A stretch of DNA of 64,000 nucleotides from an uncultured delta proteobacterium (GTDB lineage Bacteria > Myxococcota > Myxococcia > Myxococcales > Myxococcaceae). Under the pieces are notes generated by a model that was not told where the DNA came from, did no database searches, and was given only the letters and a program-made list of their open reading frames with translations. The stretch lies in NCBI GenBank assembly GCA_963771175.1, contig CAVYSY010000050.1:1-64000 (forward strand). The letters are read 5' to 3'. A program made the translations under genes and the position numbers. Of this stretch, positions 1-17,300 are shown piece by piece (the first letter of the stretch is position 1; each line of letters starts with the position of its first letter).

Positions 1-1244
1 GCCACGTATTGCTTTGACGTTGCCTGGAGTCTGCTCCACGATGTGATGCCATTCCTTCCCCGGACCCGCTGAACCCATGGCGGACTTGAAGCCACCAAAC
101 GACCCCCACGCCCTGTGTCCGTTGGGCAGGAGCTTACCCCGACTCGGGGCAGGACTCCCAGCAGTAACGCCCCGGGCAGCCATGGCTACGGCATGGGGCG
201 CCAACACCACGCGGATCGTGCCCTCGGGCACGGAGACAATAAGGCGCTCGGCTCCGGTTGCCGCTCCAGCAGGCCCGAGCCCGGTGTTAGCCGCGACCGT
301 CGCCGACGCTTGCGCGAAGCCGGGGAGCTTCGGGGCCCTTGGACATGAGCGCCGCCGTTTCACCAATGGCCGCCGTCGCCACCATGACGAGAATTCGCAC
401 GCTGTTGGGGCCGATGACTCTCCGAACCGCTCACCCATCTCGCGCAGTTCCGCAAAGGTGGAGGCTCGCGGTGCATCCTCGTAAAGCTGCGCATAGGCCC
501 GCAGCAGGTCGAAGAATTCCTATCCGAGATAGCCCCACATGGCGGCGCTAAACACCGAGGGCTACGCCCTTTGTTACCGGCTCGGGCACGGGCGCCAGCA
601 ACAGCGCCATGTAAACCGTAATGGTGAAGCTGAGCAGTAGCGAGCACTCGCGTAGGGTCGAGCATGGCCCGCACTTCCGCGTCTACGCCTTCCAGGGCAG
701 GACCCACCGCCAGGGCAAGCGCAAGGCTGCGCTTATCGTCAGTCTTGAAGGCGGGGCCCGTCTTCAAACAGCGTCAGGCAGTCGCCTGGAGTGCCGCACC
801 GCTCGCAAAATCGCCCATAGGACTGGGCCAGGTCTGATTGCCACGCTTCGCCACTCAAAGGCGCGGACGCCAGCGCCAGCCTACGGCCGACATACAGCGG
901 GGGGCAGGACGCGGACACCCGCAGCGGGATGTTGAGCCAAAGCGTTGTCATGGCGGCCGAAAGCTCGGCGTCACTCACCCGCACTGGCGCGAAGTCCGTG
1001 GGCAGCTTGGAAAAGATGGCTTCGCCCTCGCCTGTGTCTCCTTCGTCGGCTTCCACCTCCAGCGCCCACGCCTCGGGGGAGTCCTCGGAGTGGGCAGGCT
1101 GTAACGGTACGCCGTCAACCCTCCGCCCGAGGGTGCCCCCGTTGCGCAAGCTGTAAGCAGCATCAGCGCAGCCAAAGCCAGCGCGCCCACGCGCAAGGGG
1201 CGCCGCTCGTCCACCGGGCGCGAATTGAATGAATGACTAGACAT
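1..1244 (-). pseudogene. Disrupted SitA-type (SitA5-like) lipoprotein polymorphic toxin; runs off the left edge
   Basis: Lipobox LMLLTAC. Conserved delivery-domain segments are spread over several frames (PVPEPVTKG, ELREMGERFGRVIG) and resemble the toxin at 46052-47410. The C-terminal part reads WGSFGGFKSAMGSAGPGKEWHHIVEQ at about 30-110. Several frameshifts and an in-frame TAG at 520-522. Confidence 0.75.
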
Positions 1245-1847
1245 TGCCGCACCTCTCCGGGCGAGTCGCCCGAGCTGGAAGCCAAGACCCGCCGATTACA
1301 GAGAACGGCTGACAGCCACGTCAAGCCGTCGGGTCTGGTAAGGTGCTGAAAACCCATCGGGCAGGTTGTGTTTCTCTCGGGCCGCACGGGGCGGGGCACT
1401 ACTCGCGCGCCGGGCCTTGCGTTGCAGCCGGGCACGTGACGTTCCCGAGGGTGACGGTGCGCGGTCCTTGCGCTTCCCACAGCTTGAGGGTGCATGGGCC
1501 AGCCGAGTTGCCCCGGCTCCCTCTCGGTGCCTACCACGACAAAGCCAAGGGCGCCGGGGGGAAAAGGGTGTCCTGCTCATCCTTCCCTTTCCCGCGCCCC
1601 TCATGGGGCGTGGAGGGCCCGCCAGCACTCCCGCCTCGGTTTTTCTCCCCACTCATCCTTCTTCTCCCCGGACCTGCCAGGCCCGTCTCCGGCTCTGTGC
1701 AGGCGCCCCCCGCGCGATCAGCCCGCGGCTGCTCGCCGCCGGTAGGCGCCTGTGGGCGGGACTATACTTCAGCCGTAGGGCCGGGTGGGATGACCTCTCC
1801 CGTGGGACTTTGAATCAAGCCTGCCCCTCGATAGGAGAGGGCACGGC

Positions 1848-3248
1848 TCAGAGCGCCAGCTCTTCCGTCCCCACCCGGAGCGTCGTGCCCGCCGAGCCGT
1901 TCTGGATCCGCACCCCGAAGAACTCCTCGGTGAAGTCGCGCAGCTTGGGGCCGGCCATCTTCAGGATGTCCGCGCCTCCCAGCGTGGGCGCGACGGCCGG
2001 ATGCCCGAGCGACTTCTCCACGCGCGCCTGGAGCTGCTCGAAGATGGCCAGGTTGGCGCGCTCCAGGTGGAGGTAGTCCACCAGTGCCTCGGCGAAGGGC
2101 CGCAGGCCGACCTCGACGGGCCGGCCCTTGCGCAGCAGCTCCATCACGCGCGGTACGGCGTTCCCGGAGCGCGGCGCCCGCTCGTGGCGCTGGATGAGCT
2201 CCGACAGCCCCTGGCCGGAGATGGCCTTCTGCTCCGCGTCGAGCTCATCGCGGAAGCGCTCGAGGTTCTGGATGATCCGCTCGCGCACGTCCTCGTCCGC
2301 GGCGGCGACCTCCTGGGCGAGCGAGCTGACCTTGTCCGCCGTCTCCAGCTCGAACTTCTCCAGCGCGGCGGCGAGCTCGCCGGGACGGGGCTCGCCGTCC
2401 TTCGGGTGGGAGAGCCGGCGCGCCAGCTCGTGGAGCAGCGAGGTGGCCCGGGCGCCGAAGATGTACTTCTGCGCGTCGAGCCCCATCAGCAGGTTGGCGT
2501 ACTCGTGGAAGGAGCGATCGGCGAGGGCCTGCATGGGCCCGCGGTCCGCGTTGCGCGGGGGCTGGCCGTCGATCATGACCCGGAACGTCTCCTCCACCAT
2601 TCCCTTCGGGCCGGCGCACACCGACGTGAGCCCGATGAAGAGGTCGTTCGCGTCGGTGAACTCGTAGAGCACCGCGGGATCCAGCACCTCCATCTGATCG
2701 AAGAGCCCGGCGGAGATGATGATGAGCACCTGGAGGTGCGAGACGCGGTTCACCCCGAGCATCATGCGGAACATGATGGCGGTCATCGCCGGAATCTGCC
2801 CGTCGGCGAGGGGCGCCTGGGCCTTCCGCAGCAGGTAGGCGGGGAGGGTGACCCCGAGCCGGCTGAACTTCCACATGTCGACCATGTTCACGGGGCCCGT
2901 GAGCGGTCGCCCGGTGTAGCGCAGGTAGTCGTCCCGGAGCACGGCCACGCCGCCGATCACCTGGAGCCAGTACTCGTTGAACTGCTTCAGGGACGAGATG
3001 TTCATCGGCAGGGCGTGCTTGCGCCGGCTGCCCGAGTAGGGGCACTCGCGCATCTCCATGGGCACGCCGGCGCGTGACTCGGCCGGGGACATCTCCTCGC
3101 CCAGGGGACGGCCCTCGTGGTCCCGGTACGGCAGGAGGGCGCTCATCAGCGACACCCAGTACAGCTCGGGAGTCTCCAGGGCCCTGGCTCCGAAGTATCC
3201 GGACGCGAAGAGGGCATCCACCTTGCTCAGGTCGTACGACTGGCTCAT
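1848..3248 (-). CDS. Hypothetical protein, 466 aa, with Cys-containing motifs (CPYSGSR, VCAGP)
   Basis: Long ORF with natural amino-acid composition, 35 bp downstream of the PRMT-like gene; family not recognised. Confidence 0.85.
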   Translation of the reverse strand: MSQSYDLSKVDALFASGYFGARALETPELYWVSLMSALLPYRDHEGRPLGEEMSPAESRAGVPMEMRECPYSGSRRKHALPMNISSLKQFNEYWLQVIGGVAVLRDDYLRYTGRPLTGPVNMVDMWKFSRLGVTLPAYLLRKAQAPLADGQIPAMTAIMFRMMLGVNRVSHLQVLIIISAGLFDQMEVLDPAVLYEFTDANDLFIGLTSVCAGPKGMVEETFRVMIDGQPPRNADRGPMQALADRSFHEYANLLMGLDAQKYIFGARATSLLHELARRLSHPKDGEPRPGELAAALEKFELETADKVSSLAQEVAAADEDVRERIIQNLERFRDELDAEQKAISGQGLSELIQRHERAPRSGNAVPRVMELLRKGRPVEVGLRPFAEALVDYLHLERANLAIFEQLQARVEKSLGHPAVAPTLGGADILKMAGPKLRDFTEEFFGVRIQNGSAGTTLRVGTEELAL

Positions 3249-3283
3249 GGCTTTGGGTGCTCCTGCGGGGGGGAGGTCGGGGC

Positions 3284-4525
3284 CTAGCGCAGCTCGACCT
3301 TGAGGCGCTGGCGTCCGGCGACGGTGAGCAGGCTGGCGCCGAGCTGCACCTCGTCTCCGGCCTTCACGTGGAAGGCGCGCGGGAGATCCCTCACCGCCCA
3401 GCCCCAGTGGGTGCGAGGCGCGTACGGCGAGGTGGAGAGCTGGAGCCGATCATCCAGGTGGGCCCGGAAGAACATCAGCACGGAGCCCAGCCGGCCATCG
3501 GCGCGGATCTTCATCGTGGAGAGCGTCTCGCCCGCGGACTGGGCGGCCAGGTCTCCGTTCAGGTCGATGGTCCGCACGGTGCACTCCTCGGAGAGGATGC
3601 CCTGCTGGAAGAAGGCCTCGCGGAAGTCGGTGCCCTGGCGAGGGAACTGGGTGTAGTCGTTGATCTCATCCGCGTGCTCGAGGATCTGCAGGTACGGATC
3701 GAAGTTCAGGCCGTACATGCTGCTGAACTCCCGGGCCTCCAGGCGCGCGCGCGCGGCGATGGAGGGGAGGAACTCCGGCTCCACGCCCACGCAGCAGACC
3801 TCGATCTTGTGGGGGATGAGGGTGCCGCGCCCGTTGGGGAAGAAGCGCTTCCGCGCGTCATCGATGTAGGGGATGACGTTCTCGAAGAAGGGATCGATCC
3901 CGAGGATCTCATGGACGATGACGTCCGCGGGCTCGGGGAGCTGCACGTCCTTGCTGTTGCCGGTGAGCAGGACGATCCGATCCTCCATGCCGTTGGCGTG
4001 GAACATCATCCGGGCCACGGCGGCCACCTCGCTCTCCTCGAGGGCGTACACCTTGCGGGCGCCCCCCTGGGCCGCGAAGAGCGAGAGGATGCCAGTGCCG
4101 CAGCCCAGGTCCACGACGACCTTGTCCTTCACGTGGGGCTGGATGGCCGAGCGGTACGCCATCACCCGGACCGAGTCGCGCAGCATCCAGTGGTGCAGTG
4201 CGAAGGAGGCGAAGCCGGCCGAGGCGGGCACGAAGCCGCTGTCCTCCGCGCGGTAGTCCTCGCGCACCGGGGTGAGGATGTTGTGGCCGCCGAGCCGCTG
4301 GAGCGCCTCCTCGAAGGCCTCGCGGCTCAGCGCCCGCTCCTTGCGGACGGTGGCGTAGGCGGCGTCCGCCGTGCTCGGGTTGGCGAAGGCGCGGAGGATG
4401 GACACCTCCTCGTCCTGGAGCACGCAGGGATCTCGCGACACCGAGTTGGCGGCGACGAAGCGGCCCGTACCGTCGAGCTGGAGATAGACCGAGCGGGAGA
4501 TGACGTAGGCGGTAGGCAGGGCCAC
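3284..4525 (-). CDS. Protein arginine N-methyltransferase (PRMT)-like class I SAM methyltransferase with N-terminal extension
   Basis: HHWMLRDSVR, VVDLGCGTGILS (motif I), DVIVHEILG...FFE (double-E loop), STSPYAPRTHW (THW loop). GTG start at 4525 preceded by AAAGGA. Confidence 0.85.
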   Translation of the reverse strand: MALPTAYVISRSVYLQLDGTGRFVAANSVSRDPCVLQDEEVSILRAFANPSTADAAYATVRKERALSREAFEEALQRLGGHNILTPVREDYRAEDSGFVPASAGFASFALHHWMLRDSVRVMAYRSAIQPHVKDKVVVDLGCGTGILSLFAAQGGARKVYALEESEVAAVARMMFHANGMEDRIVLLTGNSKDVQLPEPADVIVHEILGIDPFFENVIPYIDDARKRFFPNGRGTLIPHKIEVCCVGVEPEFLPSIAARARLEAREFSSMYGLNFDPYLQILEHADEINDYTQFPRQGTDFREAFFQQGILSEECTVRTIDLNGDLAAQSAGETLSTMKIRADGRLGSVLMFFRAHLDDRLQLSTSPYAPRTHWGWAVRDLPRAFHVKAGDEVQLGASLLTVAGRQRLKVELR

Positions 4526-4664
4526 TGCGTTCCTTTCGGGGGAGGAGGCGGGAGGCATCAAGGCCAGTAATGACCGTAACACAGGATTCATGAACCAGGC
4601 CATCAACACCCGCCATCCATGACTTGCCCGTTCGAGGGGCGCACATGAATGATGCGCGCCACAC

Positions 4665-5885
4665 ATGAGTCATTCGCGCGCGTCGGTGGAGCAGGGGATC
4701 AGTTGGAGGGAGGCTCACATCGCCTGGTCCGTGGCGGATCAGGCACAACGGCTCCTCGAGGCGGCGAAGGCCACGTCGCCCTGGCTCGTGGAGTTCCTCG
4801 CCCAGGCGCGGGATCAGGTGCCCGTGGCGGACACCTGCGAGCCCTTCACGGCCGGTCCCTGGTTCCGGCTCCCGGCGCACGTGCGGGCGTTCTACTTCCA
4901 GGGCGGGCCGGAGGGGGTTGTCGCCGTGAAGGGCTCGGAGGTGCTCTCCGCGGATGTCGTCGAGTCGGCGAGGCGCATCCGCCCCATGCGCAGCCCGTTG
5001 TTGACGATGTCGCTGCTGGACCACTTCCCCGTCAACGAGCACAAGGTCCCGGCGGCCCTGCTCCTGGAAGAGGCGATGTCCGAGGCGGTGGCGGCCTGTG
5101 AGTTCCAGCTCGAGTACCTGCGGCGCTACGGCACGCTCGCCCAGGCGCCGATTCCCTTGCTGGTGGCCCGGTGGCCGGAGTCGGTCGCCGAGTCGTTCCG
5201 CGAGAAGATGGAGCCTTTTCTCACCGGGAGGGGTGTCTCCATCACGAACCGGCTCGTGAAGGATGGGTTGGGCACCTATGTCTATTACTACCCGGGCCCG
5301 ACGCTGCGGGTGACCCACCTCGCGAAGATGCTCGAGGGCATGGTGGGGCCGCGGCACGGCTTCGAGGCCCGCCTCCAGGCGATGTGCCAGTTCACGGAGC
5401 CGCGCAAGGCCATCGAGGGGTGGATCCAGCTGATCGTTCGCGCCCTCGCGCTGGGGTACTTCCCCTGCATCCTGACCCACCACAGCGTCGGTCAGGCGAT
5501 CCGTCCCCACAACGCGGTCATCGATGGGGGGCTGGTGGACCTCGACTCCTTCCAGAAGATGAGCGAGGTGAAGGACGAGCGCGAGTTCATCGATACCTTC
5601 TGGACGGGGATCCTCCTGTTCTCCGAGACGCTCATCGAGTTCCTGCTCGGGAACTTCCCGGTGAAGTCGGAGCAGTGGGGCTACTCCTCGCCGATCCCCG
5701 CGTTCGTCGAGAGCGCCCTCGTGGACGAGCTCCGGCGCGGGCTGAAGGAGGAGGTGAAGCGCGGAGCGAAGCTCGACCCGCGGCTGGAGAAGGTGCTCTT
5801 CTCCGAGGCCTCCCTGACGGAGCGGCTGAGCGGTGCGTTCTCCACGATGTTCCCGCCGCTCACCACGCGCCACCTGGGCGGGTGA
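4665..5885 (+). CDS. Hypothetical protein, possible atypical kinase / SelO-like fold
   Basis: VVAVKG (beta3 Lys-like) and GQAIRPHNAVIDGGLVDLDS (catalytic-loop Asn plus DFG-like Asp spacing). The fold call is inference. Confidence 0.65.
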   Translation: MSHSRASVEQGISWREAHIAWSVADQAQRLLEAAKATSPWLVEFLAQARDQVPVADTCEPFTAGPWFRLPAHVRAFYFQGGPEGVVAVKGSEVLSADVVESARRIRPMRSPLLTMSLLDHFPVNEHKVPAALLLEEAMSEAVAACEFQLEYLRRYGTLAQAPIPLLVARWPESVAESFREKMEPFLTGRGVSITNRLVKDGLGTYVYYYPGPTLRVTHLAKMLEGMVGPRHGFEARLQAMCQFTEPRKAIEGWIQLIVRALALGYFPCILTHHSVGQAIRPHNAVIDGGLVDLDSFQKMSEVKDEREFIDTFWTGILLFSETLIEFLLGNFPVKSEQWGYSSPIPAFVESALVDELRRGLKEEVKRGAKLDPRLEKVLFSEASLTERLSGAFSTMFPPLTTRHLGG

Positions 5886-5892
5886 GCGGGCC

Positions 5893-7173
5893 TCACGGCC
5901 CGTCGGGGGCGATCTCCACCGGTCGAGGCGCGTCCTCGGCCGGGAGGAACCCGGGGATGCGCGAGCTGAGCAGCAGGACGAGCGAGGGCACGAGGAAGGC
6001 CACCGAGGCCAGTTGCATGGTGGCCGGCAGGGAGATGCGATCCGCGAGCAGGCCGAGGCCGATGGCGGCCAGGGGCATGACGCCCACGACCATCATCTCG
6101 CTCAGGCCGAGCACGCGCCCGCGCAGCCGGTCGGGGATGGCCACCTGGAGCAGGGTGAGGACGAGGGCGAAGGAGACCTCGACGCCGAAGCCCAGGAGGG
6201 CGACGAGGAGGGTGGCGGACCCGCGCTCCTGGGTGAGGGACAGGCCCCAGAGCGCGAGCGAGGCCACGGCGCAGGAAGCCACGAGCATGCCGCCGCGCAC
6301 CCGGGGCGTGAGCCGGGTGAGCAGCAGGCAGCCGACGAGTGCTCCGAGCCCCGCGCCCGTCAGCACGAGGCCCAGATCTCGCTCGGAGCCGCCGAGCTGC
6401 CTCATGACGAAGAAGGGCAGGAACACCTGGGAGAAGGGGAAGAGGAGGACGGCCAGCAGGCTGACGGTGCCGAGCAGGGCCCTGACCTCCCGGTGCGCCC
6501 AGGCATAGCGCAGGCCCTCGGTCAGGGTGAGGCTCTCGGGGTGTTGGAGGCGCATCGCCACCGGCCGGGGGCGGAGGCGCAGCAGGACGAGGATGAGCGG
6601 CAGGTAGCTCACGCTGTTGGCGACGAAGAGCCAGTGCAGCGGGGCCACGGTGAGCACGAGCGCGGCCAGGGCGCTGCCCACGAGCTGCGAGGCCGAGAAC
6701 GTGGCCCCCTGGAGGCTCACGGCCATGGGCAGCAGGCCCACGGGCAGCAGCTCCCCGGGCAGGGCCTGCTTCGCCGGCGCGCTGAAGGCCAGCAGCGAGC
6801 CCAGCAGCACGAACCACACGCACACCAGGGGGAGGGTCACTCGATCCGCCGCCACCACCGCCGCGCCGAGCAGCGCGAGCAGGCTGAGCAGCGGCTGGAT
6901 CGTCAGGAGGATCTTCCGGCGCTCGTACCGATCCGCCAGCACGCCCGCCAGCAGCACGATGCCCACGATGGGCACCGTGATGAGCGCTCGCACCGCGCCC
7001 ATGACGGCGGTGGAGTCGGTGAGTCGGGCGATGAGCCAGCCTCCCGCCGTGGCCAGCATCGCGTCACCGATGTACGCGACCGTCTGGCCGCTCCAGACGC
7101 GTCTGTAGTCGCGGTGGGCGAGGACGGTGAGTGCGCCCGGCGGTTCCTGTGGGCTCGGGGATCGCGATACCAT
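5893..7173 (-). CDS. MFS transporter (DHA3/EntS-like exporter)
   Basis: RDYRRVWSGQTVAYIGD, GVLADRYERRKIL (MFS motif A), PDRLRGRV; about 12 hydrophobic segments. Confidence 0.9.
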   Translation of the reverse strand: MVSRSPSPQEPPGALTVLAHRDYRRVWSGQTVAYIGDAMLATAGGWLIARLTDSTAVMGAVRALITVPIVGIVLLAGVLADRYERRKILLTIQPLLSLLALLGAAVVAADRVTLPLVCVWFVLLGSLLAFSAPAKQALPGELLPVGLLPMAVSLQGATFSASQLVGSALAALVLTVAPLHWLFVANSVSYLPLILVLLRLRPRPVAMRLQHPESLTLTEGLRYAWAHREVRALLGTVSLLAVLLFPFSQVFLPFFVMRQLGGSERDLGLVLTGAGLGALVGCLLLTRLTPRVRGGMLVASCAVASLALWGLSLTQERGSATLLVALLGFGVEVSFALVLTLLQVAIPDRLRGRVLGLSEMMVVGVMPLAAIGLGLLADRISLPATMQLASVAFLVPSLVLLLSSRIPGFLPAEDAPRPVEIAPDGP

Positions 7174-7227
7174 GGGCGGGAGCGTTCTCCTGCGCGGCGT
7201 GACTCGGGGAGCGCCCGCCTCGTGAAC

Positions 7228-9552
7228 ATGACTATACCTGCCAGAATCATCCTCCGGCGAGCCCTGGTCGCCTGGGCCGTGGGGCTCTCCGTGGTGGCAG
7301 TCCTCGTCGGACTCGTGGCGTGGACGGACCGTCCGCCAGCGCCGAAGCCGGAGACGAGCCCGATGAGCGAGTTCTCCGAGGCCCGCGCCATGGGCATCGT
7401 GAAGCACCTCACCGAGGACATCGGCCTGCGCGTGCAGGGCACGCCGGGGCAGCGGGCGGCGGCGGAGTACCTGGCCGCGCGACTGCGCGAGCTTCCGGGC
7501 GTGGAGGTGGACGTGCAGACGGTGGAGGCACGGCTCGCGGACACGCCTCGTGGAGACATGGTGCTGGCGCCGCGCGTCACCAACGTGGTGGCGCGCATCC
7601 GGGGCAGGTCGGAGTCGGCGGTGCTGCTCTCGGCGCACTATGACTCGCCGCCCGAGAGCGTGGGGGCCGCGGACGACGCCGTGGCCGTGGGAGCGCTGGT
7701 GGAGGTGGCGCGCGTGCTCGCGTCCGGGCCGGCGCCGCTGCACAGCGTGCTCATCGTCCTCAACGGCGCCGAGGAGGGCTGGCTGTTGGGCTCCACCGCC
7801 TTCGTCGGCCACCCCTGGGCGAAGGAGCTGCGTGCCTTCATCAACCTGGAGGCGGCCGGCGCTGGAGGCAAGGCGATCCTCTTCCAGAGCGGGCCGGGCA
7901 ACGCGTGGCTGCTGGATGCCTACGCCCGCGCCGCGCCCCACCCATACGGCACCGTCATCGGGCAGGATCTCTTCCAGAGCGGCGCCATCCACTCCGAGAC
8001 GGACTTCCGCATCTACCGGGACCGGGGAGGGCTGCGTGGGCTCGACATGGCCCTGTACCAGGACGGGTACGCGTACCACACCGGGTTGGATCGGCTGTCC
8101 CGGCTGGAGCCCGGGAGCCTGCAACACCTGGGAGACAACACGCTGGCGATTGCCCGGGAGCTGGCCGGGCGCGAGCTGCCCCAGGTGCACGATCCCGAGC
8201 CGGGCGTCTATTACGATCTGCTGGGCGTGACGATGGTCACCTACACCCGCACGGTGGCCCGGGTGCTGGCGGGGCTCGCGCTCCTGCTCGGGTGTGTCGC
8301 GCTGTTCGTGACGCTGCGCCGCACGTCGATGACGGTGGGCGGGTGGGCGAGGGGAGTGGGCCTGACGTGGCTGGGAGCCGGTGCCGGGCTGCTGCTCGCG
8401 CTCGGGGCCGCGCTGTCACTGGGCTTCGTCTTCCACCGGCCGCATGGCTGGTTCTCGGCGCCGTGGCTCGCGGTGCTCACCTTCGGGGCGTGCGCGCTGG
8501 CGGGCTCGCTCGGGGTGCATGCGCTCTGGGCTCGCTGGGGCGGTGACGCGGAGGAGCGGGCGTCGAGGGCGTGGGCGGGAGGCCTGGTGCTGTGGATGGC
8601 CGTGCTGGGGCTCCTGACGTGGGCGGGGCTGGGGATGGCCTACGTGGCGCTCTGGTGGGTCGTCCCCGGGTCCATCGGGCTGCTGCTCGCGACGCTGTGG
8701 CCCTCGTGGCGCGGCGCGGCCCTGCTGGTCGGCTTCGTTCCCGGCGCGCTGGTGAGCGTGCAGGTGGCCAACGTGCTGCTCGCCCTGGTCATCCCGCTCT
8801 CCGGGCGATTGATGCTGCCCATCCCGTTCGATCCCATCATCGCCGCCCTGGTGGCGCTGCCGGTGGTGGGTGCCTTCGCGCTCGGCGCCCCGGCGTTCCA
8901 TCGCACGGGCGGGCTCGGATGGGCCGCGGCGGTCTTCGGTGGGGTGGGCGTGCTCGCGCTCGGCGCCACGGCGCTGCACTTCCCCTATACGCCCGAGCGA
9001 CCCAAGCGCATCTGGGTGGTTCACGAGGAGACGCGGGGCCAGCCCGCGCGGGTGCTGCTCCAGGGCTTCGACTTCCCGGCGCTGGAGGAGGTGGCGCGGC
9101 AACTGCCTCCCGCGGACTGGGCCCCCGGAGCGCCGGCGTGGTACCAGGAGCTGGTGCGGCCGGCCGAGCCGACCCGGCTGGCGCCGCCGGTGCTCCAGGT
9201 GGTGTCCTCGCAACCGGGCCCGGACGGAGAGCGGTCGGTGCGGTTGCGCGTGGAGGCCCCGGACGCGCTGGAGTTCACGCTGACGCTTCCGAGGAATCGG
9301 GTGCTCGGATGGGACTTCCCCGAGCCGCTGCCGACGATGCCGGGCGAGGAGTTCGTTACGCTCAACATCCATGCACCCGGGGAGCGGAGCTGGGAGTTCA
9401 CCGTCCGCCTGCGAGGCAGCGAGCCGGTGCCGGTCGAGTGCACCACGTACCTGCTCGCGCCGACCTCCACCCTGGAGCAGCTCCGCGCACAGCTTCCCGG
9501 GTGGACGACCGCGTTCTTCTCCGTCAGCATGAAGGACCGGATCCAGCTCTAG
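7228..9552 (+). CDS. Membrane-bound M28 family metallopeptidase (ERMP1/PFF1-like architecture)
   Basis: LLSAHYDS, GAADD, NGAEE, INLEAAGAGGK, ETDFRIY, YHT, followed by multiple TM helices. Confidence 0.9.
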   Translation: MTIPARIILRRALVAWAVGLSVVAVLVGLVAWTDRPPAPKPETSPMSEFSEARAMGIVKHLTEDIGLRVQGTPGQRAAAEYLAARLRELPGVEVDVQTVEARLADTPRGDMVLAPRVTNVVARIRGRSESAVLLSAHYDSPPESVGAADDAVAVGALVEVARVLASGPAPLHSVLIVLNGAEEGWLLGSTAFVGHPWAKELRAFINLEAAGAGGKAILFQSGPGNAWLLDAYARAAPHPYGTVIGQDLFQSGAIHSETDFRIYRDRGGLRGLDMALYQDGYAYHTGLDRLSRLEPGSLQHLGDNTLAIARELAGRELPQVHDPEPGVYYDLLGVTMVTYTRTVARVLAGLALLLGCVALFVTLRRTSMTVGGWARGVGLTWLGAGAGLLLALGAALSLGFVFHRPHGWFSAPWLAVLTFGACALAGSLGVHALWARWGGDAEERASRAWAGGLVLWMAVLGLLTWAGLGMAYVALWWVVPGSIGLLLATLWPSWRGAALLVGFVPGALVSVQVANVLLALVIPLSGRLMLPIPFDPIIAALVALPVVGAFALGAPAFHRTGGLGWAAAVFGGVGVLALGATALHFPYTPERPKRIWVVHEETRGQPARVLLQGFDFPALEEVARQLPPADWAPGAPAWYQELVRPAEPTRLAPPVLQVVSSQPGPDGERSVRLRVEAPDALEFTLTLPRNRVLGWDFPEPLPTMPGEEFVTLNIHAPGERSWEFTVRLRGSEPVPVECTTYLLAPTSTLEQLRAQLPGWTTAFFSVSMKDRIQL

Positions 9553-9572
9553 TCCTTCTCGAAGGCGTCCCC

Positions 9573-10457
9573 ATGCCCCGCCAGCCTCTGCCCATCGAGC
9601 GCATCGCGTGTCCCTCGCCGGAGCTCTTCCGGAAGAACTACGTGGACAGGAGTCGGCCCGTGGTGCTGACGGGGGTGGCCAGCCGGTGGCCGGCGGTGGA
9701 GCGCTGGAGCCCGGAGTTCTTCCGGGACACCTACGGCAGCCACCGGATCCACGTCGAGCAGAGCAGGTCCGAGGTGCCCTCGAATGAGCCGCTGGAGTAC
9801 CTGCGCAACCGGTACTACCGCGAGGAGGAGCTGGGGAAGGTCATCGACCTGATGCTCTCGGGGCAGCACCCTCCCGGGGCGTACTACGTGACGTACTCGA
9901 GCATCTTCGAGACGGTCCCCACGCTCCACGAGCAGATCGAGCCGCTGCACCGGACGCTCGGCATCCCGGCGCACTACCCCGAGTCCCTGAAGCGGAGACT
10001 CTCGCTGAAGCCCGGGTTCTGGCTGGGGCCTGGGGGCACGGTGTCCGCGGTCCACTTCGATCGACAGGAGAACTTCAACGCCCAGGTGACCGGGCGGAAG
10101 AAGTGGACGCTCTTCGCGCCCTCGGACTCGCGCAACCTCTACTACCCGTCGCTGGAGCTGCCGACGGTGCTCTTCAGCCCGATCGACGTCGAGCAGCCGG
10201 ATTCGCGGCGCTTCCCGCGCTTCGACGAGGCCCAGCCCTACGAGACCATCCTGGAGCCGGGCGAGGTGCTCTTCATCCCCGTGGGCTGGTGGCACCACGT
10301 CCGGTCGCTGGAGATGTCCATCTCGCTGAACTTCTGGTGGTGGACGCTGGCCTCCGCGTGGACGACGGCCCGCATCAATTATCAGTACGCGCGCAAGCAC
10401 GCCCTGCGGCTGACGGGGCGGCAAGGCGCCTCGGGCGCCTCGATGCCGGTGCGCTGA
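9573..10457 (+). CDS. JmjC/cupin-like Fe(II)/2-oxoglutarate dioxygenase
   Basis: WLGPGGTVSAVHFD...QVTGRKKW...LEPGEVLFIPVGWWHHV (HxD...H triad). Confidence 0.9.
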   Translation: MPRQPLPIERIACPSPELFRKNYVDRSRPVVLTGVASRWPAVERWSPEFFRDTYGSHRIHVEQSRSEVPSNEPLEYLRNRYYREEELGKVIDLMLSGQHPPGAYYVTYSSIFETVPTLHEQIEPLHRTLGIPAHYPESLKRRLSLKPGFWLGPGGTVSAVHFDRQENFNAQVTGRKKWTLFAPSDSRNLYYPSLELPTVLFSPIDVEQPDSRRFPRFDEAQPYETILEPGEVLFIPVGWWHHVRSLEMSISLNFWWWTLASAWTTARINYQYARKHALRLTGRQGASGASMPVR

Positions 10458-10466
10458 GGCGCGGCG

Positions 10467-11537
10467 TCACATGCGCCGCAGGATGGCGTCCATCGCGCAG
10501 CTCGTGTTGTAGCCGAAGAAGTCCGCGTAGAAGGTGTCGACCTTGTAGTCGGCACGGTGGTTCCACAGGAACCGGCCCAGCCCGTCCTCGACATGGGGCT
10601 CGGTCTCGGTGACCGGGCCGCTCTCGGGATCCTCGACGATGACGTAGTCGCCCGGCTGCAGGTACGGGTGCAGGTACGAGAGCAGGCCATTCACGTTGAC
10701 GTGCGCGTCCTCGAGGATGATCCACGGGTGGGGGGCGCTCTTCAGCATCTCCGGCGTGAAGACCTGCTCGATCTCGTGGCTGTCGCCCTGGAGGAAGCTC
10801 ACCCGGGGGTGGGAGAGGGGCGGCTTCACCAGATCATAGGTGTAGAGGTGGCAGTCGAGGCCGAGTCCCGTGAGCTGATCGGCGAGCCACAGGGCGCCGC
10901 CGCCGCTGGCCGTGCCGCTCTCGAAGATCGTCCTCGGCTTGAGGTCCCAGAGGAGGCGAGGGTAGAGGCTGATGTCGAAGACGGTCTTGAAGAGGGGGAC
11001 ACCCCGCCAGCGCATGCAGTCCGCCACGCCCTGGCTCATGGCGAAGACCTGATCGGGGACCTCGCGCCCCAGCAGCGGGGAGCGCTCGAAGTAGTCGACG
11101 AACCGGCCCTGGCTGCGCCGGGTCATGTGCGCGCGGAAGGTCTCCAGGGCCCGCGTGGCCTGCTCGTCGAGCGGCACGGGAATGCCCCGGGGGGCCATCT
11201 CCAACAGGGGGCCGAGCGTGGAGCGCACGGCGTTGGCCAGGTAGGTGCTGACGCCCGGGTAGACGTGGTTGCGCTCGATGTCCTCGCGGAACCCGCGCAC
11301 CTGCTCGGCGAGTCGCTCGCCCTCGACGGGGGGAATCTGCCGGTAGAAGCCGACCGTGTGCTCCGCCCGGTGGCGCTCGGGCGCGGAGCCCGTTCGGAAG
11401 TCCTTCGCGCAGGTCTCGCAGAGATCGGCGCGGCAGTCGAAGCAGTGGAACCTGCTCCCGAGTGGTTGCTGGCAGCGATCACAGATGAAGCTTGCCAGTT
11501 GGGCGAAGCCTTCGGTCCTCGGGTGGGCTGCTCTCAA
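10467..11537 (-). CDS. CmcI (cephalosporin hydroxylase)-family methyltransferase with N-terminal ZZ-type zinc finger
   Basis: CDRC..RFHCFDC.ADLCETC..HRAEH, then MRWRGVPLFK..D...Y..LLWDLKPRTIFESGTASGG and GDYVIVED. TTG start with GGAGGAG upstream. Confidence 0.85.
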   Translation of the reverse strand: MRAAHPRTEGFAQLASFICDRCQQPLGSRFHCFDCRADLCETCAKDFRTGSAPERHRAEHTVGFYRQIPPVEGERLAEQVRGFREDIERNHVYPGVSTYLANAVRSTLGPLLEMAPRGIPVPLDEQATRALETFRAHMTRRSQGRFVDYFERSPLLGREVPDQVFAMSQGVADCMRWRGVPLFKTVFDISLYPRLLWDLKPRTIFESGTASGGGALWLADQLTGLGLDCHLYTYDLVKPPLSHPRVSFLQGDSHEIEQVFTPEMLKSAPHPWIILEDAHVNVNGLLSYLHPYLQPGDYVIVEDPESGPVTETEPHVEDGLGRFLWNHRADYKVDTFYADFFGYNTSCAMDAILRRM

Positions 11538-11613
11538 GTCTTCTCCTCCGGGAGGGTTCGTCGCGTGGGGGACGCTTGACGGGAGTCGGAGCGGGTCCGT
11601 CTAATCTGGACTC

Positions 11614-12489
11614 ATGGGCAAGCAGGTGGATCAGATCGAGCGAGTCGAGGGGATCGACCCCGAGCGATTCCATGAGGACTACGTCAGGCGTGGAGTCCCG
11701 GTCATCATCACCGGGGTGGCTTCGACGTGGCAAGCCTGCGGCAAGTGGACGCCCGAGTATTTCGCGAGGGAGTTCGGCGACACGCCGGTGCAGGTGGAGG
11801 TCCAGCGCAGCAGGGATCCGCGCAAGCACTGGAACGAGAAGGAGGTGCTCGACACCACGCTGGCGAAGTACGTCGAGCTGCTGCCCTCGGAGAGCCCGAA
11901 GTACTACCTGAACTTCGCGTCGGTGATGGAGCGCCTTCCCGCGCTGCACGCGGACGTGGGCTCGCTCGACGCGTACCAGAGGCACCACCGCCCGTACCCC
12001 GCGGCGGTGCGTAGGAAGCTGAAGCTCTCTCCCATCTTCTGGTTCGGACCGGCGGGCGCCTTCACGACGCTCCATCGGGATCCATCCGACAACCTGCTGG
12101 TGCAGCTCTTCGGGCGCAAGCGGCTGTCGATCTTCGCTCCGGAGGACACGCCCTACCTGTACGCGCCGTGGCACGACAACTGTACGGCGAACCGCTGCAT
12201 CGGCGGGTACAGCCCGATTGACGTCGACAATCCCGATCTCGGCAGGTTCCCGCTCTTCAGCAGGGCCCGGCGTCTGGACGTCACGCTGAGCCCCGGGGAG
12301 ATGCTCTTCCTCCCCGTGCACTGGTGGCACTTCGTCACGTCGATCGATGTGTCGATCTCGGTGTCGTATTGGTGGTTCCACCGGCTGTCGAACTGGCACT
12401 GGAGCACGGCGGCCTGGATGCCGCTCGCCTCCGCGGTGGGCTGCCGGCTCCGGCACCTCCGGGGAGAGCGCGCCGCTCGTGCCGCTTGA
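11614..12489 (+). CDS. Second JmjC/cupin-like Fe(II)/2OG dioxygenase
   Basis: FWFGPAGAFTTLHRD...QLFGRKR...LSPGEMLFLPVHWWHFV; paralogous to 9573-10457. Confidence 0.9.
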   Translation: MGKQVDQIERVEGIDPERFHEDYVRRGVPVIITGVASTWQACGKWTPEYFAREFGDTPVQVEVQRSRDPRKHWNEKEVLDTTLAKYVELLPSESPKYYLNFASVMERLPALHADVGSLDAYQRHHRPYPAAVRRKLKLSPIFWFGPAGAFTTLHRDPSDNLLVQLFGRKRLSIFAPEDTPYLYAPWHDNCTANRCIGGYSPIDVDNPDLGRFPLFSRARRLDVTLSPGEMLFLPVHWWHFVTSIDVSISVSYWWFHRLSNWHWSTAAWMPLASAVGCRLRHLRGERAARAA

Positions 12490-12520
12490 TTGACGTCCTC
12501 AACTAAAAGGCCTGCTCGCC

Positions 12521-13045
12521 ATGTCAAATCCTCTCCGCCGTCTCGTGTTGATGGTTGTCGGCTCCTGCGCGGTATGTGCCCTCGGAGCGTGTTCGAGCGT
12601 CACAGCCGCAACCCAACCCACCGCGTCGCTCTCGGTGCGCGAGCTGAACATCGTCGACGAGCAGGGTCAGGCGCGCCTTCGCATTGGCGCGCCGCTGCCC
12701 GATCCCAAGGGCCTCAAACGCAAGGTGAAGGCCGTTGGCATCCAGTTCATGGACCCGAACGGGCAGGAGATCGGAGGGCTCGCCATGCTCGATTCCATCG
12801 ACTTCCGCGGGCTGTGTTTCGACAGCGAGGAGGGCTACGAGGCGATTTGCATGAGCCTCATCAAGGGACAGCCCAGCGTCGTCTTCCGCTACGACTGGCA
12901 GGAGCGCATCTCCATTGGCGTAGAGAATGGCGTGGCGAGCGTCGTCCTCAACGACGCCCAGGGCAATCCGCACCTGCGGCTCGAGGTCGACAAGGACGGC
13001 AAGACGCGGGTCGTAGCGGCGACTCCGATCCCGGCGAGCAACTAG
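12521..13045 (+). CDS. Hypothetical lipoprotein (beta-rich)
   Basis: Signal peptide with lipobox ALGAC; repeated IVD.QG..RLR / LND.QG..LRL segments. Confidence 0.75.
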   Translation: MSNPLRRLVLMVVGSCAVCALGACSSVTAATQPTASLSVRELNIVDEQGQARLRIGAPLPDPKGLKRKVKAVGIQFMDPNGQEIGGLAMLDSIDFRGLCFDSEEGYEAICMSLIKGQPSVVFRYDWQERISIGVENGVASVVLNDAQGNPHLRLEVDKDGKTRVVAATPIPASN

Positions 13046-13079
13046 GGAGAGAGCCTTCTGTTACACCCGGGTTCCTCGG

Positions 13080-13976
13080 CTACTTCGTGGAACCCGGTGA
13101 TGTGTTCTGGGGTCGCTGATAGAGCTTCTCTCTCCATTCGAGGAACTCACGTGTGGGAGGGGTATCGCTCTCGAACGTCACGTAGCTCCTGGGCTCCGCC
13201 TTGGGGTGCTCCGGGCGCGGGCCCTCGGGAAGTGGTGAGGTCTCCGGGCACGGCTGAAACGCGTTCACCTGGATTCTGGACCGAGGTCCCGGGCAGAAAT
13301 ACCAGCACGTCCAGCCCGTGGGGGTGTGGTCGTTGCCGCGGAGATAGCAGGTGTCGGGAATCCGGAAGAGGCGCATGGCGTCCTCCAGTGTCCTGCGCAG
13401 CTCCGCCCGAGCTGGATCGCCCTGACTCCACGTTGCTTCCTGTGACTGGGCCTTCTTCAGCCAGGAGAGGGCGGCGGCATCTCCCAGGCGCTCCAGCTGC
13501 CAGATGAGCGATTGACGTCGATACGGCTCCCGTTCGGACAGCAGTCGCTTGCCAACGATACGGACCGCATCCCCTCTGGATGCGTACGAGACCAGCAGCT
13601 CGATGACCCGGTTCGCTCCCCAGGCATCGCCCGTCGTGCCCAGGGCCAGCGCCTCCAGCTTCGGAAGCGAGCGTGGCAGGTCGAAGACCACCAGCCCTCG
13701 CATCGCGACGTCCAGGTACTGCCTCTCCCGGGCGTTCCGGGGGGACCGGTAGCGGATGAAGAGGCGCTGGTACAAGGGCACGGCCTCGGGCCCCTGCTCG
13801 GCGAGGAAGTCCCCAACGGAGTCTGGCTCTGGATGGACCACGCAGAAGCCCCGGGAGGCCCGGTAGTCACGCTCCTCCTTCATTGCGCGTTCGAGCGCCA
13901 CGCGCCGGGCATGGGCGCCGCAGCCCGTGAGCAGTGGGAGCAAGACCCAGACGATGATGGGCAGGCGGATGCTCAT
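13080..13976 (-). CDS. Hypothetical lipoprotein, helical/HEAT-like with Cys-rich C-terminus
   Basis: Lipobox LLTGC; plausible ORF. Confidence 0.65.
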   Translation of the reverse strand: MSIRLPIIVWVLLPLLTGCGAHARRVALERAMKEERDYRASRGFCVVHPEPDSVGDFLAEQGPEAVPLYQRLFIRYRSPRNARERQYLDVAMRGLVVFDLPRSLPKLEALALGTTGDAWGANRVIELLVSYASRGDAVRIVGKRLLSEREPYRRQSLIWQLERLGDAAALSWLKKAQSQEATWSQGDPARAELRRTLEDAMRLFRIPDTCYLRGNDHTPTGWTCWYFCPGPRSRIQVNAFQPCPETSPLPEGPRPEHPKAEPRSYVTFESDTPPTREFLEWREKLYQRPQNTSPGSTK

Positions 13977-14018
13977 GACACCCCGGAAGAGCACGTGTAC
14001 CGAGGCATCTTCACCCGG

Positions 14019-14042
14019 CCCCTCTCCCGCTGGCGAGAGGGG
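14019..14042. repeat. Intergenic hairpin (REP-like/terminator-like)
   Basis: CCCCTCTC-8 nt-GAGAGGGG just downstream of mutS2. Confidence 0.4.
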
Positions 14043-14077
14043 ATTGTGACTCGGCGGTGGTCCGCCGGACCTCGGGC

Positions 14078-16491
14078 TCAGGCCCGCAGGGCCACCACCG
14101 TCACGCCGTCGCCGCCCTCGTGGTTCTCGCCCGGGCGGAACATCCGGATGTACGGCGAGGCCGCGAGGTAGTCGCGGATGGCCTGCTTGAGCGCGCCGGT
14201 CCCGTGCCCGTGGATGATGAGCGCGGACTCCTCGCCGCTGCGCAGCCCCGGTCGAGGAAGGACTCCACCTCGCGCAGCGCGTCCTCGGCTCGCATGCCTC
14301 GCACGTCGCAGCGGTAGTTCGTCGCCTCCACCGCCTCCGGGGCCGCCTGCCTTCGCCTGCTGGAGCGCTGCACCTGCTTGTTGCGCTCGGGGAACTTCGG
14401 TTCCTTCGCCTTCGCCGTCCGCGAGCCCGACAGCTCCGACACCGGCACGCGCATCTTCAGGATGCCCGCCGCCACCAGCGCCTGGTCTCCCGTCAGCTCG
14501 AGGATCTCCACGTCCTTGTCCAGGCCCGAGTGCCGCACCCACGCGCCCACCTTCAGCTCGGCCGGCGGTGGGGCCTCCACCTGGAACAGCTCCGCCCGCG
14601 CCGCCTTCGCCCGCTGGTTGGCCTCCTCCGCCCGCTGCAGCAGCTCCGCCCGCGCCTCCGCCGCCGCCTTCTCGTTCGACTGCGACCGCAGCACCTTCAG
14701 CAGCTCCTGCACCTCCGTCGCCGCCTGGTCGCTCGCCGCCGCCACTCTTCGTGGAGGCGCATCGCCTCGCCTTGCGCTCCCGCTCGAACTGCTGCTCTGC
14801 TCCTCCAACTGCGCGCGCAGCCGCTCGGCCTCCTCCGCCGCCACCTTCGCCCGCTCCAGCTCGTCGTGCAGCTTCGCGCCGCTCCTCCTCCGCGGCCGCC
14901 AGCGCCTTGGCCAGCGGGCCGCCCGCGTTGCATGGCCAGGTCTCGCGCGCGCTCGCAGATGTGCGCCGGCAGCCCCATGCGCGCCGCCACGTCGATGGCC
15001 GACGACGCACCCGCCGCGCCCAGTCTGCAGCTTGTAGGTGGGCGCCATCCGCTTCGCGTCGAAGCCCACCCGCGCGTTCAGGAAGCGCGGATCCAGGTGC
15101 GCCAGCGCCTTGAGCTCCTCGAGGTGCGTGGTGACCAGCACCACCGCGCCCCCGGTGAGCAGCTCCTCCAGCACGGCGATGGCGATGGCCGCGCCCTCGC
15201 GCGGATCGGTGTCCGCGGCGATCTCGTCGATGAGCACCAGCGAGTTCCGGCCCGCCGACGCGGCGATGTCGCGCAGCATCGCCACGTGCGCGCTGAAGGT
15301 GGACAGGCCCTGCGCCAGGTCCTGCGCGTCGCCGACCGTGGAGTGCACCGAGCGGAAGAGCGGCATCCGCGAGCCGCTCGGCCGCCGGAATCGGCAGGCC
15401 GGCGCGCAGCATCAGCGCGCACAGGCCCACCGCCGTCAGCGTCACCGTCTTGCCGCCCGCGTTGGGGCCGGAGACCACCAGCGCGCGCGCCTCGCCCTTG
15501 AGCCGCACGTCGTTGGCCACCACCTCGCCGCCCTTGAGCACCAGCAGCGGGTGGCGCAGCGCGCAGCAGCGCCAGCGCACCGTCGCCGGTGCAGCTCCGG
15601 CGCGGTCGGCGCCGCAGGTCGCGCGGCCAGCTCCGCCGCCGCCTCGGCCTCGTCCAGCTCGCCGACGGCGTCGATCCCCTCGAGGATGCGCGTCCGACTC
15701 GCGGCCCAGCAGGTCCGACAGCTCCTGCAGGACCCGGCGCTCCTCCTCCAGCACCACCGACTGCGCGATGGCCAGGTCGTTGCCCAGGCCCACCAGCGCC
15801 TGCGGCTCGACGAAGAGCGTCTGCCCGGACTGGCTCGCGTTGTGGACGATGCCCGGCACCTCGGCGCGGTGTTGGGCCAGCACCGGCACCACGTAGCGCT
15901 CGTTGCGCAGGGTGTAGTAGCTCTCGCGCAGGTTGGGCAGGAACTTCTCGTCGTGCAGCAGCTTGTCGAGCCGCGCACTTGATGCTCCGGTGCAGGCCGC
16001 GGATCCGGTCTCGCGCCTCCTTGCAGCTCGGGGCTGGCGCGGTCGGAGATCTCCCCGTCCGGCCTCGAAGCACCGGTCGATGCGTCACCGCCAGCGACTC
16101 CAGCATCCGGCAGCCGCCGGCCGATGGCCGCCAGCCGGGGCACCGCGTGCTGCGCGCTCCTCCAGCGCCTCGCGGGTCCGGACGAAGGCGAACAGCAGCT
16201 GCGCGCGAGGCGATGAGCTCGCCGCGGCTCCAGCAGGCCGCCCTTCTCGGCGCGCCCCATGGCGCTGCGCAGGTCGCTCACCCCGCCCAGCGGCAGGGAG
16301 AACTGCTCCTGGCCGAGGCGGCGCGCCTCGGCGACGAGGGTGAGCGCATCGGCCACCTGCGCCTCGCGCGAGTCGAGGAAGGGACGCGCGAGCGCCCGCT
16401 CCCTTCCGGGTGCGGTGCGGCAGCGGTGGGCCAGGGCGCGGAGCACGTCCGCGAAGCCGAGGTCTTCGAGGGTTCTCTGGGCGATCTGCAC
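14078..16491 (-). CDS. mutS2: Endonuclease MutS2 (multiple apparent frameshifts)
   Basis: VHNASQSGQTLFVEP, Walker A SGPNAGGKT, LSTFSAH, LIDEIAADTDPREG, VTTH, and Smr domain IIHGHGTGAL...EGGDGVTV across frames. Confidence 0.9.
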
Positions 16492-16581
16492 GGTCAGGGT
16501 TTCAAGCGCGGCCGGTGCGCCGTCAAGGAGGAAGTGTAGGTTGTGGACAGGCGAGCCGACGGCTCTGGTATGCTGCCGGCC

Positions 16582-17300
16582 ATGCGCTCTGGCTTCTGGC
16601 TTGCGTGGTAGCGCTCGCGGCGGCGCATGGACGCCCCACCGCTCCGGCGCGAGGCCTGACCCCGGCCCTCGCGCCGGGAGGCCGCAGGGCGACGACGCCG
16701 GGGCGCTCGCCGCCGTGGAGGCCCTCATCCGCGCCCGGCCCACCTGGGCGCTGCCGCGCCTCGAGGCGGCGCGCCTGCTGCTCAAGTTGGGCAGCCGACC
16801 TGCGACGCGTCGAGGCCCACCTGGACGTGGCCGGCGCGCTCGGCCCCGGACCAACCCCCGGCGTCCACTACCTGCGGGGGCTGCTCTGGGAGGAGCGGGG
16901 GCAGCCCCGCGCGCTGCCCGTGCGTACGAGCGGGCGTGCTGCTACCGCGCAGCCTACGAGGACGCCCGCTTCCGGCTCGCCGGCCTCTGGCCTGCCCAGG
17001 GCGACTGGCTGCAAGGCCGAGCTGCACTACCGCCTCCTCAGCCGCGCCCGCCCCGAGTGGGTGCAGGTGCGCCTGCAGCTCGCCCAGGTCCTCGAGCAGC
17101 AGGGCCGGGTGGCGGACGCCGAGCGGGAGCTGCAGGCGCTCCTGAAGGCCCAGCCGGGCAACCCCCTGGTGCTGCGCCGGCTGGCGGAGCTCTACGAGCG
17201 CACCGGACGCCCCGAGCTCGCCAGCGAAGCTGCGAAGGTCCAGCCTGGAGCCCCCCGCCGCCCAAGAAGAAGATGCGCCCCCTGCGTCCGTCGCAGGTCG
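16582..17300 (+). CDS. Tetratricopeptide repeat protein (frameshifted; ends approximate)
   Basis: TPR-like segments HYLRGLLWEERG and VRLQLAQVLEQQGRVADAERELQALLKAQPGNP. Confidence 0.7.

Follow-up and report, generated by a model that had tools for sequence, protein, structure and literature searches.

Does a recognition element typical of ribosomally made peptides that are modified after translation (RiPPs) mean that the enzyme carrying it acts on a ribosomal peptide? The question is raised by a gene near the start of contig CAVYSY010000050.1 of an uncultured delta proteobacterium of the Myxococcaceae (assembly GCA_963771175.1), of which the first 64,000 nucleotides (the window) were analysed. 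It encodes a protein arginine methyltransferase (PRMT)-like enzyme with a RiPP recognition element (RRE) at its N-terminus and is called the RRE-PRMT gene here. The original prediction had described a PRMT-like enzyme with an RRE-like N-terminus and had gone on to conclude that the RRE implies a ribosomal peptide substrate. The description is confirmed. The conclusion fails at this locus, where there is no conserved precursor and where the conserved partners of the gene include a non-ribosomal peptide synthetase (NRPS) line, made up of a fatty acyl-AMP ligase (FAAL)-NRPS and a polyketide synthase (PKS)-NRPS. The evidence favours this NRPS setting over a ribosomal substrate, and we think it probable that an RRE-PRMT shared with RiPP pathways here tailors an arginine-type residue of a lipopeptide, the RRE being either a relic or a docking module.

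The open reading frame (ORF) of 413 aa runs on the minus strand from 4525 to 3284, with a GTG start and an AGGA ribosome-binding site 7 nt upstream. Its G+C content at third codon positions (GC3) is 0.95, and two Logan contigs of run X1, which may be the sample of origin, span 2455-5258 without a gap, the whole gene included. Among named relatives the protein is closest to MXAN_4412 of Myxococcus xanthus (79% identity), followed by a protein from Corallococcus (77%) and others from Sorangium (69%). A scan of the region 1200-4800 found neither a sigma-70 promoter nor a terminator. The gene and its parts are as follows:

3284..4525, minus strand: RRE-PRMT gene, 413 aa, orthologue of MXAN_4412 (79% identity)
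4262..4513, minus strand: RRE, a PqqD-like winged helix with the strands first, residues 5-88
3806..4219, minus strand: Rossmann domain binding S-adenosylmethionine (SAM), residues 103-240
4166-4195, minus strand: H-x-x-M-L-x-D-x-x-R, inside the Rossmann domain
4091-4117, minus strand: motif I, residues 137-145, inside the Rossmann domain
3881..3910, minus strand: double-E loop, E206 to E215
3287..3805, minus strand: PRMT beta-barrel with helical arm (residues ~256-290)
3404-3412, minus strand: THW loop, within the beta-barrel part

The signature motifs on which the enzyme had been called a PRMT are all present, namely H111-x-x-M114-L115-x-D117-x-x-R120, the glutamates E206 and E215, and S364-T-S-P-x-x-P-x-T372-H373-W374. 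In an alignment of 59 family members R120, E163 and E206 never vary, while E215 and D117 are each kept in 58, W374 in 56, T372 in 54 and H373 in 46. A sequence search of the PDB placed PRMT3 on top (E 3e-33), all 60 of the matches listed being PRMTs, and E206 and E215 (nine residues apart) together with T372-H373-W374 align with the glutamates and the THW of PRMT3. Pfam PRMT_C (PF22528) scores above its cut-off. The AlphaFold2 model of the whole protein (predicted local distance difference test, pLDDT, 89.8) contains the arm helices, and VIA-align superposed 259-306 of its residues on 14 PRMT entries at Z 23.2-29.2, while none of the non-PRMT methyltransferases listed exceeded 13.8. Foldseek agrees on the PRMT fold. 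This whole-protein search bears on the PRMT part and not on the N-terminus; for the PRMT part, sequence and fold both bear out the claim that the enzyme is of PRMT type and distinct from generic class I methyltransferases. A database label as PrmA, the L11 lysine methyltransferase, was rejected as a misannotation, since TIGR00406 reaches 40.2 bits against a cut-off of 183.15; the likeness to PrmA is limited to the motif I region (Z 13.8 over 137 residues) and leaves the PRMT barrel unmatched.

Eukaryotic type I enzymes (PRMT3 2FYT/1F3L, PRMT1, PRMT6 and CARM1) share with the protein the Rossmann domain, beta-barrel and arm at Z 28-29 and ~25% identity, as well as the double-E loop, the THW loop and the SAM-binding Arg and Glu. 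The eukaryotic proteins carry SH3, zinc-finger or PH domains at their N-termini, and type I PRMTs are marked by a YFxxY helix and by a Met after the second Glu. The myxobacterial protein differs in its N-terminal RRE, in its bacterial biosynthetic context and in both type I marks. The aromatic pair that starts the helix (YF) is absent, which leaves just the final aromatic (F105, in 52/59 members), and position 217, after the second Glu, is Leu, Val or Ile in 51/59 members and Met in 6/59, with Val in the protein itself. The motif set is therefore complete for PRMT catalysis without being that of type I specifically, and the methylation type cannot be called from it. From fold and catalytic residues we predict a guanidino N-methyltransferase activity.

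The N-terminus had been read as strands followed by helices in the manner of PqqD and other RREs, and this reading stands. Folded alone, residues 1-90 reach a pLDDT of 90.4 and form strands 6-9, 14-17 and 23-26, helices 38-46, 53-63 and 68-80, and a strand at 84-86. RREs or RRE-like domains of peptide-tailoring proteins make up 11 of the 12 best fold matches, led by MccB (Z 11.1, root mean square deviation 2.2 over 80), MibB (10.7) and TigE (10.6); further matches are MadB (9.0), ThcOx (8.9), PbtF (8.9), TbtB (8.8), lasso B1 (8.7), BmdC (8.7, rank 9), TbiB1 (8.6) and NisB (8.4). DNA-binding winged helices begin only at Z 7.2, and those of protein-modifying enzymes reach 8.1 (Rv2067c) and 7.4 (MINA53-type 2xdv). 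Foldseek gave a probability of 1.0 with a best E value of 1.1e-3, and HHalign against an alignment of 30 PqqD sequences gave a probability of 75.9 (E 2.3e-5, score 30.2), the highest score among 30 column shuffles being 15.6. By sequence alone the signal is fainter: Pfam PqqD matched 1 of 13 members (E 0.05), a sequence-only PDB search returned weak generic winged-helix matches, and an Atlas match to MftB at 0.75-0.76 serves as a lead only. The RREs of RiPP enzymes (MccB, MibB, TigE, NisB, PbtF, lasso B1, PqqD) share with this domain the fold of strands followed by three helices, at Z 6.9-11.1 over 80-84 residues. They bind a leader encoded in their own cluster, whereas at this locus no such leader was found. 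The domain is 62-71% identical to those of four close orthologues, compared with 84-88% for the Rossmann domain, and a simple estimate at high GC puts its dN/dS at ~0.3 against 0.08-0.14 for the core. It thus appears to be retained under purifying selection, with a constraint looser than that of the core.

What stands around the gene points away from a ribosomal substrate. In two related genomes (G284 and G295) the order is PRMT, a 466-aa protein, FAAL-NRPS (~3900 aa), PKS-NRPS (~2500 aa), CmcI, GNAT and Asp/Arg hydroxylase, and a third (G299) keeps this order until the start of the FAAL-NRPS gene, where its contig ends. In the genome studied here (G000) the best matches to FAAL-NRPS and PKS-NRPS lie in the last 22 kb of a different contig, C1, whose end also carries CmcI and Asp/Arg hydroxylase orthologues. 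In G146, from the same genus, a FAAL-NRPS gene begins ~70 bp after the 466-aa gene, and its best match in G000 is C1:279501-276960 (76.7%). The cluster of G000 is most likely split between the start of C50, the contig of the window, and the end of C1. The 466-aa protein is the constant neighbour of close PRMT orthologues; in three Sorangium strains the accessions of the two follow one another directly, and in M. xanthus they are MXAN_4412/4413. The conserved partners comprise this protein, FAAL-NRPS, PKS-NRPS, hydroxylases of the JmjC and Asp/Arg kinds and methyltransferases of CmcI type, and the linkage of the RRE-PRMT gene to an NRPS/PKS assembly line is a conserved one. No precursor gene was found in or near the cluster, though one encoded in trans could still serve the enzyme. 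When 265 small ORFs (15-130 aa) were compared across the clusters of G000 (on both C50 and C1), G284, G295 and G299, none proved to be shared with G000; the matches seen were between the near-identical G284 and G299, plus two marginal 15-residue matches between G284 and G295 (E ~0.01). The features concerned are:

1..1340, contig starts here: frameshifted repeat element, of which contig C39 has a copy (83%)
1848..3248, minus strand: 466-aa protein, MXAN_4413 orthologue, no family match, 35 bp downstream of the RRE-PRMT gene
4665..5885, plus strand: 406-aa protein, no Pfam, NCBIfam or PDB match, divergently transcribed
5893..7155, minus strand: major facilitator superfamily (MFS) exporter, which in G295 also adjoins the PRMT gene
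7231..9552, plus strand: membrane M28 peptidase, ERMP1-like, start uncertain, present in the G295 cluster too
9573..10457, plus strand: JmjC/cupin-8 2-oxoglutarate (2OG)-Fe dioxygenase, 67-73% identity to its counterpart in G284, G295 and G299
10467..11537, minus strand: CmcI-type O-methyltransferase with a zinc-finger-like N-terminal region
11614..12489, plus strand: second JmjC/cupin-8 dioxygenase
G000:C1:260140-279600, minus strand, outside the window: FAAL-NRPS/PKS-NRPS line

That the residue concerned should be an arginine, or something derived from one, is suggested by the adenylation (A) domain of the last module. Its pocket, read by anchoring on the core motifs and not by a trained predictor, is DVEN[V/L]TAITK in G000, G284, G295, G299 and G146, while the upstream modules differ (Ser, Asn/Asp-type and Ser in G000; Ser, Val-type and Gly-type in G284 and G295). 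It agrees at 8/10 positions with the arginine consensus given in the available part of PMC12283262, which makes arginine the predicted specificity. The best single-domain PDB match of this A domain is ApnA A1 (E 5e-79), tabulated as arginine-incorporating in the accessible portion of PMC5311044. Across 363 genomes of the order, close orthologues of the last A domain occur in five, which are the same five that hold a short orthologue of the 466-aa protein, and four of them also hold a close PRMT orthologue.

The family of the 466-aa protein leads to arginine as well. It is found in 61 of the 363 genomes, mostly in a long form, and in 17 of 25 distinct loci examined the long paralogues stand beside precursors with an MKIKT-type leader. 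All 26 distinct precursors of this type carry Arg in the core, where Arg and Cys lie at most two or three residues apart; Arg lies within two residues of Cys (R-C, R-x-C or C-R) in 25. From these sequences the long paralogues with their Arg/Cys precursors look like an undescribed RiPP class. The PRMT active site, the A-domain pocket and the partner family, each of them a predictive line, converge on guanidino chemistry. Of the 466-aa protein itself no Pfam, NCBIfam or meaningful PDB profile match was obtained, and Atlas matches stayed below 0.8. A SznF-like diiron role was dropped because the alignment has no invariant His. An RRE-like N-terminal extension of the long paralogues, noticed by eye, was not supported (HHalign to PqqD, probability 3.9). 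A predicted complex of the PRMT with the 466-aa protein scored 0.00 against a mark of 0.32, which counts neither way.

A mechanism can be proposed on these grounds. The line would make an acyl-tripeptide, add one ketide unit and end with an arginine or modified-arginine residue. E206 and E215 would hold the guanidinium as in eukaryotic PRMTs, and the methyl group of SAM would pass to a terminal nitrogen. Candidate acceptors are free arginine (in the manner of SznE), carrier-bound arginine or the released peptide, with one or two methylations. The same arginine-type residue may also be the target of the 466-aa protein and of some hydroxylases and CmcI enzymes, and the two pocket changes described below could, speculatively, suit an arginine that had been modified beforehand. 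The RRE would derive from the RiPP branch of the family, to persist as a relic or as a docking surface. Its presence in an NRPS tailoring enzyme has a precedent in BmdC, the bacillamide oxidase (7LY4/7LY7), whose RRE-like domain was considered a likely evolutionary relic by the authors of PMC8795117 in the passages available. BmdC is a flavin oxidase whose complex with its NRPS has been solved, whereas the RRE-PRMT is known from sequence and models.

There is in fact a part of the family to which the inference of a ribosomal substrate does fit. In a sample of 301 genomes from the class of G488 (Thermoanaerobaculia), 10 genomes matched, nine of them at E <1e-130. LanB and/or LanC genes lie within 12 kb of the RRE-PRMT gene in 6 of the 9 acidobacterial loci, and precursors were seen in 5 of these 6, four scoring above the class I lanthipeptide leader cut-off. 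Each of the five loci with precursors has one with Arg in its core. A further locus, L001, likewise encodes an Arg-containing precursor, directly upstream of the RRE-PRMT gene. One of the lanthipeptide-linked proteins is 43% identical to the myxobacterial enzyme over its full length, RRE included. The clusters of class I lanthipeptides carrying an RRE-PRMT and Arg-containing precursors are L212-L217 and L001. The other three acidobacterial loci share one gene order, with a TauD-type or 2OG dioxygenase and ATP-binding cassette (ABC) genes, and neither a precursor nor an NRPS appears within the 12-32 kb covered. In a FastTree phylogeny of 86 rows the RRE-PRMT falls in a supported clade of eight rows with Myxococcus, Corallococcus and Sorangium, apart from the acidobacterial rows; the deep nodes are weak, so that the tree separates the branches without giving a direction from RiPP to NRPS. 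The tree left out P0058-P0062, most of P0063-P0146 (five eukaryotic PRMTs were kept) and P0170 onward. Among the 363 genomes of the order, 19 gave matches at E <=1e-20 and four, G000 included, hold a close orthologue. A pattern scan of the genome contigs returned at least two full family members among the 80 matches listed, most others being unrelated methyltransferases, and a metagenome scan for the family returned one locus.

Several points weigh against the arginine-tailoring role that we prefer. The C1-C50 join is derived from relatives, and the Logan contigs of four runs do not bridge it; the C1 synthetase genes are frameshifted in this assembly. G146 gave no PRMT match, in an assembly of 1150 contigs where the 466-aa gene begins right at the edge of one. 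At two positions the pocket differs from the arginine consensus (N for D278 and T for G301), and it shares 6/10 positions with the code DVENAGVVTK of a 3-amino-6-hydroxy-2-piperidone (Ahp) module, as given in the accessible part of PMC2533009. The five genomes that show co-occurrence belong to two genera and are not independent, so that their agreement does not amount to a statistical test, and co-occurrence was scored with only 3-5 candidates per genome. The RRE is better conserved than would be necessary for a pure relic. The distant members at L104-L107, L134 and L218-L220 are accompanied by neither NRPS nor precursor, which means that the substrate may not follow the neighbourhood. The members at L104-L107 are myxobacterial and 40% identical to the protein studied here; at L104, L105 and L107 a JmjC gene and a pair of TldD/TldE type are found nearby, and no precursor was called there.

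The rival closest to the original prediction holds that the RRE binds the leader of a precursor encoded elsewhere, such as the MKIKT-type Arg/Cys peptides on contigs C32 and C36, and that the enzyme methylates an arginine of the core. The genome does encode four Arg-containing MKIKT-type peptides, with which the family of the 466-aa partner travels; the RRE has a true RRE fold still under purifying selection, and a sister branch sits in lanthipeptide clusters. Against this, the cluster itself is without a precursor and the MKIKT-type peptides have a long enzyme of their own alongside, and since the 466-aa family occurs in 61 of the 363 genomes and the close PRMT in only 4, the PRMT tracks the NRPS module and not the precursors. 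We regard a precursor in trans as unlikely. About equally unlikely, in our estimate, is that the enzyme tailors the lipopeptide at an acceptor other than the guanidino nitrogen, either another amine (ornithine, lysine or an amidine) or a hydroxyl made by a dioxygenase. The imperfect arginine code, the wealth of hydroxylases in the cluster and the replacement of H373 in 10 of the 56 family members covering that position would accommodate this; the enzyme nevertheless retains its two glutamates, an intact THW loop and an intact H-x-x-M-L-x-D-x-x-R helix, and two CmcI-type enzymes are already at hand for O-methylation.

Could the enzyme instead be a genuine PRMT with a cellular protein as its target, serving self-resistance or regulation or modifying the NRPS or the 466-aa partner, with the winged helix recognizing that substrate? 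The whole PRMT architecture including the helical arm, the RRE-like winged helices of protein-modifying enzymes (Rv2067c and 2xdv) and the neighbourhoods of L106 and L134, which have no biosynthetic core, speak for it. The patchy distribution bound to one biosynthetic cluster, and the fold search in which the RREs of RiPP enzymes outscore the domains of protein modifiers, make it improbable. Still less credit is given to the idea that the cassette has been orphaned by the insertion at the start of the contig, severed from a diverged or decayed line and left with no current pathway in this genome. Downstream of the 466-aa gene the repeated element does take the place of the NRPS start, and the line on C1 has different middle modules and apparent frameshifts; yet the cassette genes are intact with GC3 of 0.90-0.96, the last module retains the shared pocket, and frameshifts also occur in an unrelated 14-16 kb stretch, which suggests assembly indels.

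The tailoring of an arginine-type lipopeptide residue thus remains the reading that we prefer. A bolder form of it, offered tentatively, supposes that a two-enzyme arginine-tailoring unit, the RRE-PRMT with a member of the 466-aa family, moved as a whole from RiPP biology into an NRPS line. The sisters of the RRE-PRMT would then serve class I lanthipeptides as arginine N-methyltransferases guided by a leader, and the long paralogues would act on the cores of the Arg/Cys precursors. The RRE would still be at work and would now hold on to a leader-like strand belonging to the synthetase or to the partner; the product would carry a new residue, a methylated and oxidized arginine.

Some further features of the region deserve mention. 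Beyond the intact genes of the cassette, the 406-aa protein is absent from the clusters of G284, G295 and G299, and a paralogue lies beside a FAAL gene on contig C57. The element at 1-1340 occupies the position of the FAAL-NRPS start in relatives and has no Pfam match; we take it to resemble AHH-type polymorphic toxin genes. At ~14100-16850 of the window a gene, presumably MutS2-like with C-terminal sequence of the Smr type, is split over several frames, which points to assembly indels. In the PKS-NRPS of G000 (C1:260140-264861, L235:3140-7861), G284 and G295 the last domain is epimerase-like, its histidine motif is altered (HFL[I/V]ADG), and there is no thioesterase. Just downstream of the assembly line lies a CmlA-type diiron beta-hydroxylase gene (G000:C1:257872-259464), and the last 250 bases of C1 hold a short stretch like the 3' end of a tRNA or tmRNA, also present on C34, a possible integration scar. 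GNAT is a separate gene in the NRPS clusters of G146, G284 and G295, and P0162 is a fusion of 1082 aa with tandem GNAT domains and a full RRE-PRMT.

Other loci show how members of these families are deployed elsewhere. The long paralogues (590-610 aa; G000:C32:292059-294155, G000:C36:82901-85280 and loci L170-L193) have no Pfam or NCBIfam match, and a C39 peptidase-ABC transporter is often near them and their MKIKT-type precursors. Another FAAL-NRPS cluster (G226:C35:339000-380000; L195 and L231) holds a more distant short member of the 466-aa family with an amidinotransferase, JmjC, an M28 peptidase, ATP-grasp and pyridoxal phosphate (PLP) enzymes. L113 (G222:C166:1-6225) is a candidate RiPP cluster in which a repeat-type precursor with Arg in each repeat accompanies an RRE-less PRMT, two proteins of the tetrapyrrole-methylase family, a B12 radical SAM enzyme and an Asp/Arg hydroxylase. 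At L109 (G200:C1, locus 5360-14411) a PRMT-like gene occurs with a nitrile-hydratase-leader-like peptide, several P450s and a fusion of amine oxidase and prenyltransferase folds.

Bacterial PRMTs in NRPS operons are already known; what is new is an RRE-fused bacterial PRMT found in both lanthipeptide and NRPS settings. According to the passages available of PMC3417536, citing Aravind et al. 2011, the closest bacterial sisters of the PRMTs occur in operons with peptide dioxygenases and NRPSs, and the eukaryotic PRMTs are argued to derive from bacterial peptide-tailoring methylases. These operons are like the neighbourhood of the RRE-PRMT, and the passages name no RRE, substrate or experiment. 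Neighbourhoods with JmjC, CmcI and NRPS are described, and MXAN_4411 is named as a JmjC protein, in the accessible part of PMC2938197; the neighbours of MXAN_4412 have a single mention in the open literature searched, a body of text outside which most subscription papers fall. Nowhere in it were the RRE-PRMT fusion, MXAN_4412-4415 or the MKIKT-type precursors described, nor was any experiment found on a bacterial peptide-tailoring methylase with a full PRMT fold; bioRxiv 2021.11.30.470311 does not mention PRMT. A precedent, by its description, is SznE/StzE of streptozotocin biosynthesis, an arginine guanidino methyltransferase (PMC11705231 and PMC12637814, in the parts available). Bacterial as well, it supplies N-omega-methyl-arginine to a natural-product pathway and has a 31%-identical homologue in the saskemycin cluster; it differs in feeding SznF and not an NRPS module, and those parts mention no RRE. 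The myxoglucamide cluster, to judge from the available portion of PMC13638107, differs in architecture and was rejected as the RRE-PRMT cluster.

From an RRE fold alone a ribosomal substrate cannot be concluded; the RRE-PRMT locus is a clear case of this. The argument on the origin of the PRMTs can be tested with this family in two settings, the lanthipeptide branch with its precursors and the NRPS branch with MXAN_4412 of the laboratory strain M. xanthus DK 1622. The finding also points to an unassigned enzyme family, that of the 466-aa protein, and to an apparently undescribed class of Arg/Cys precursors.

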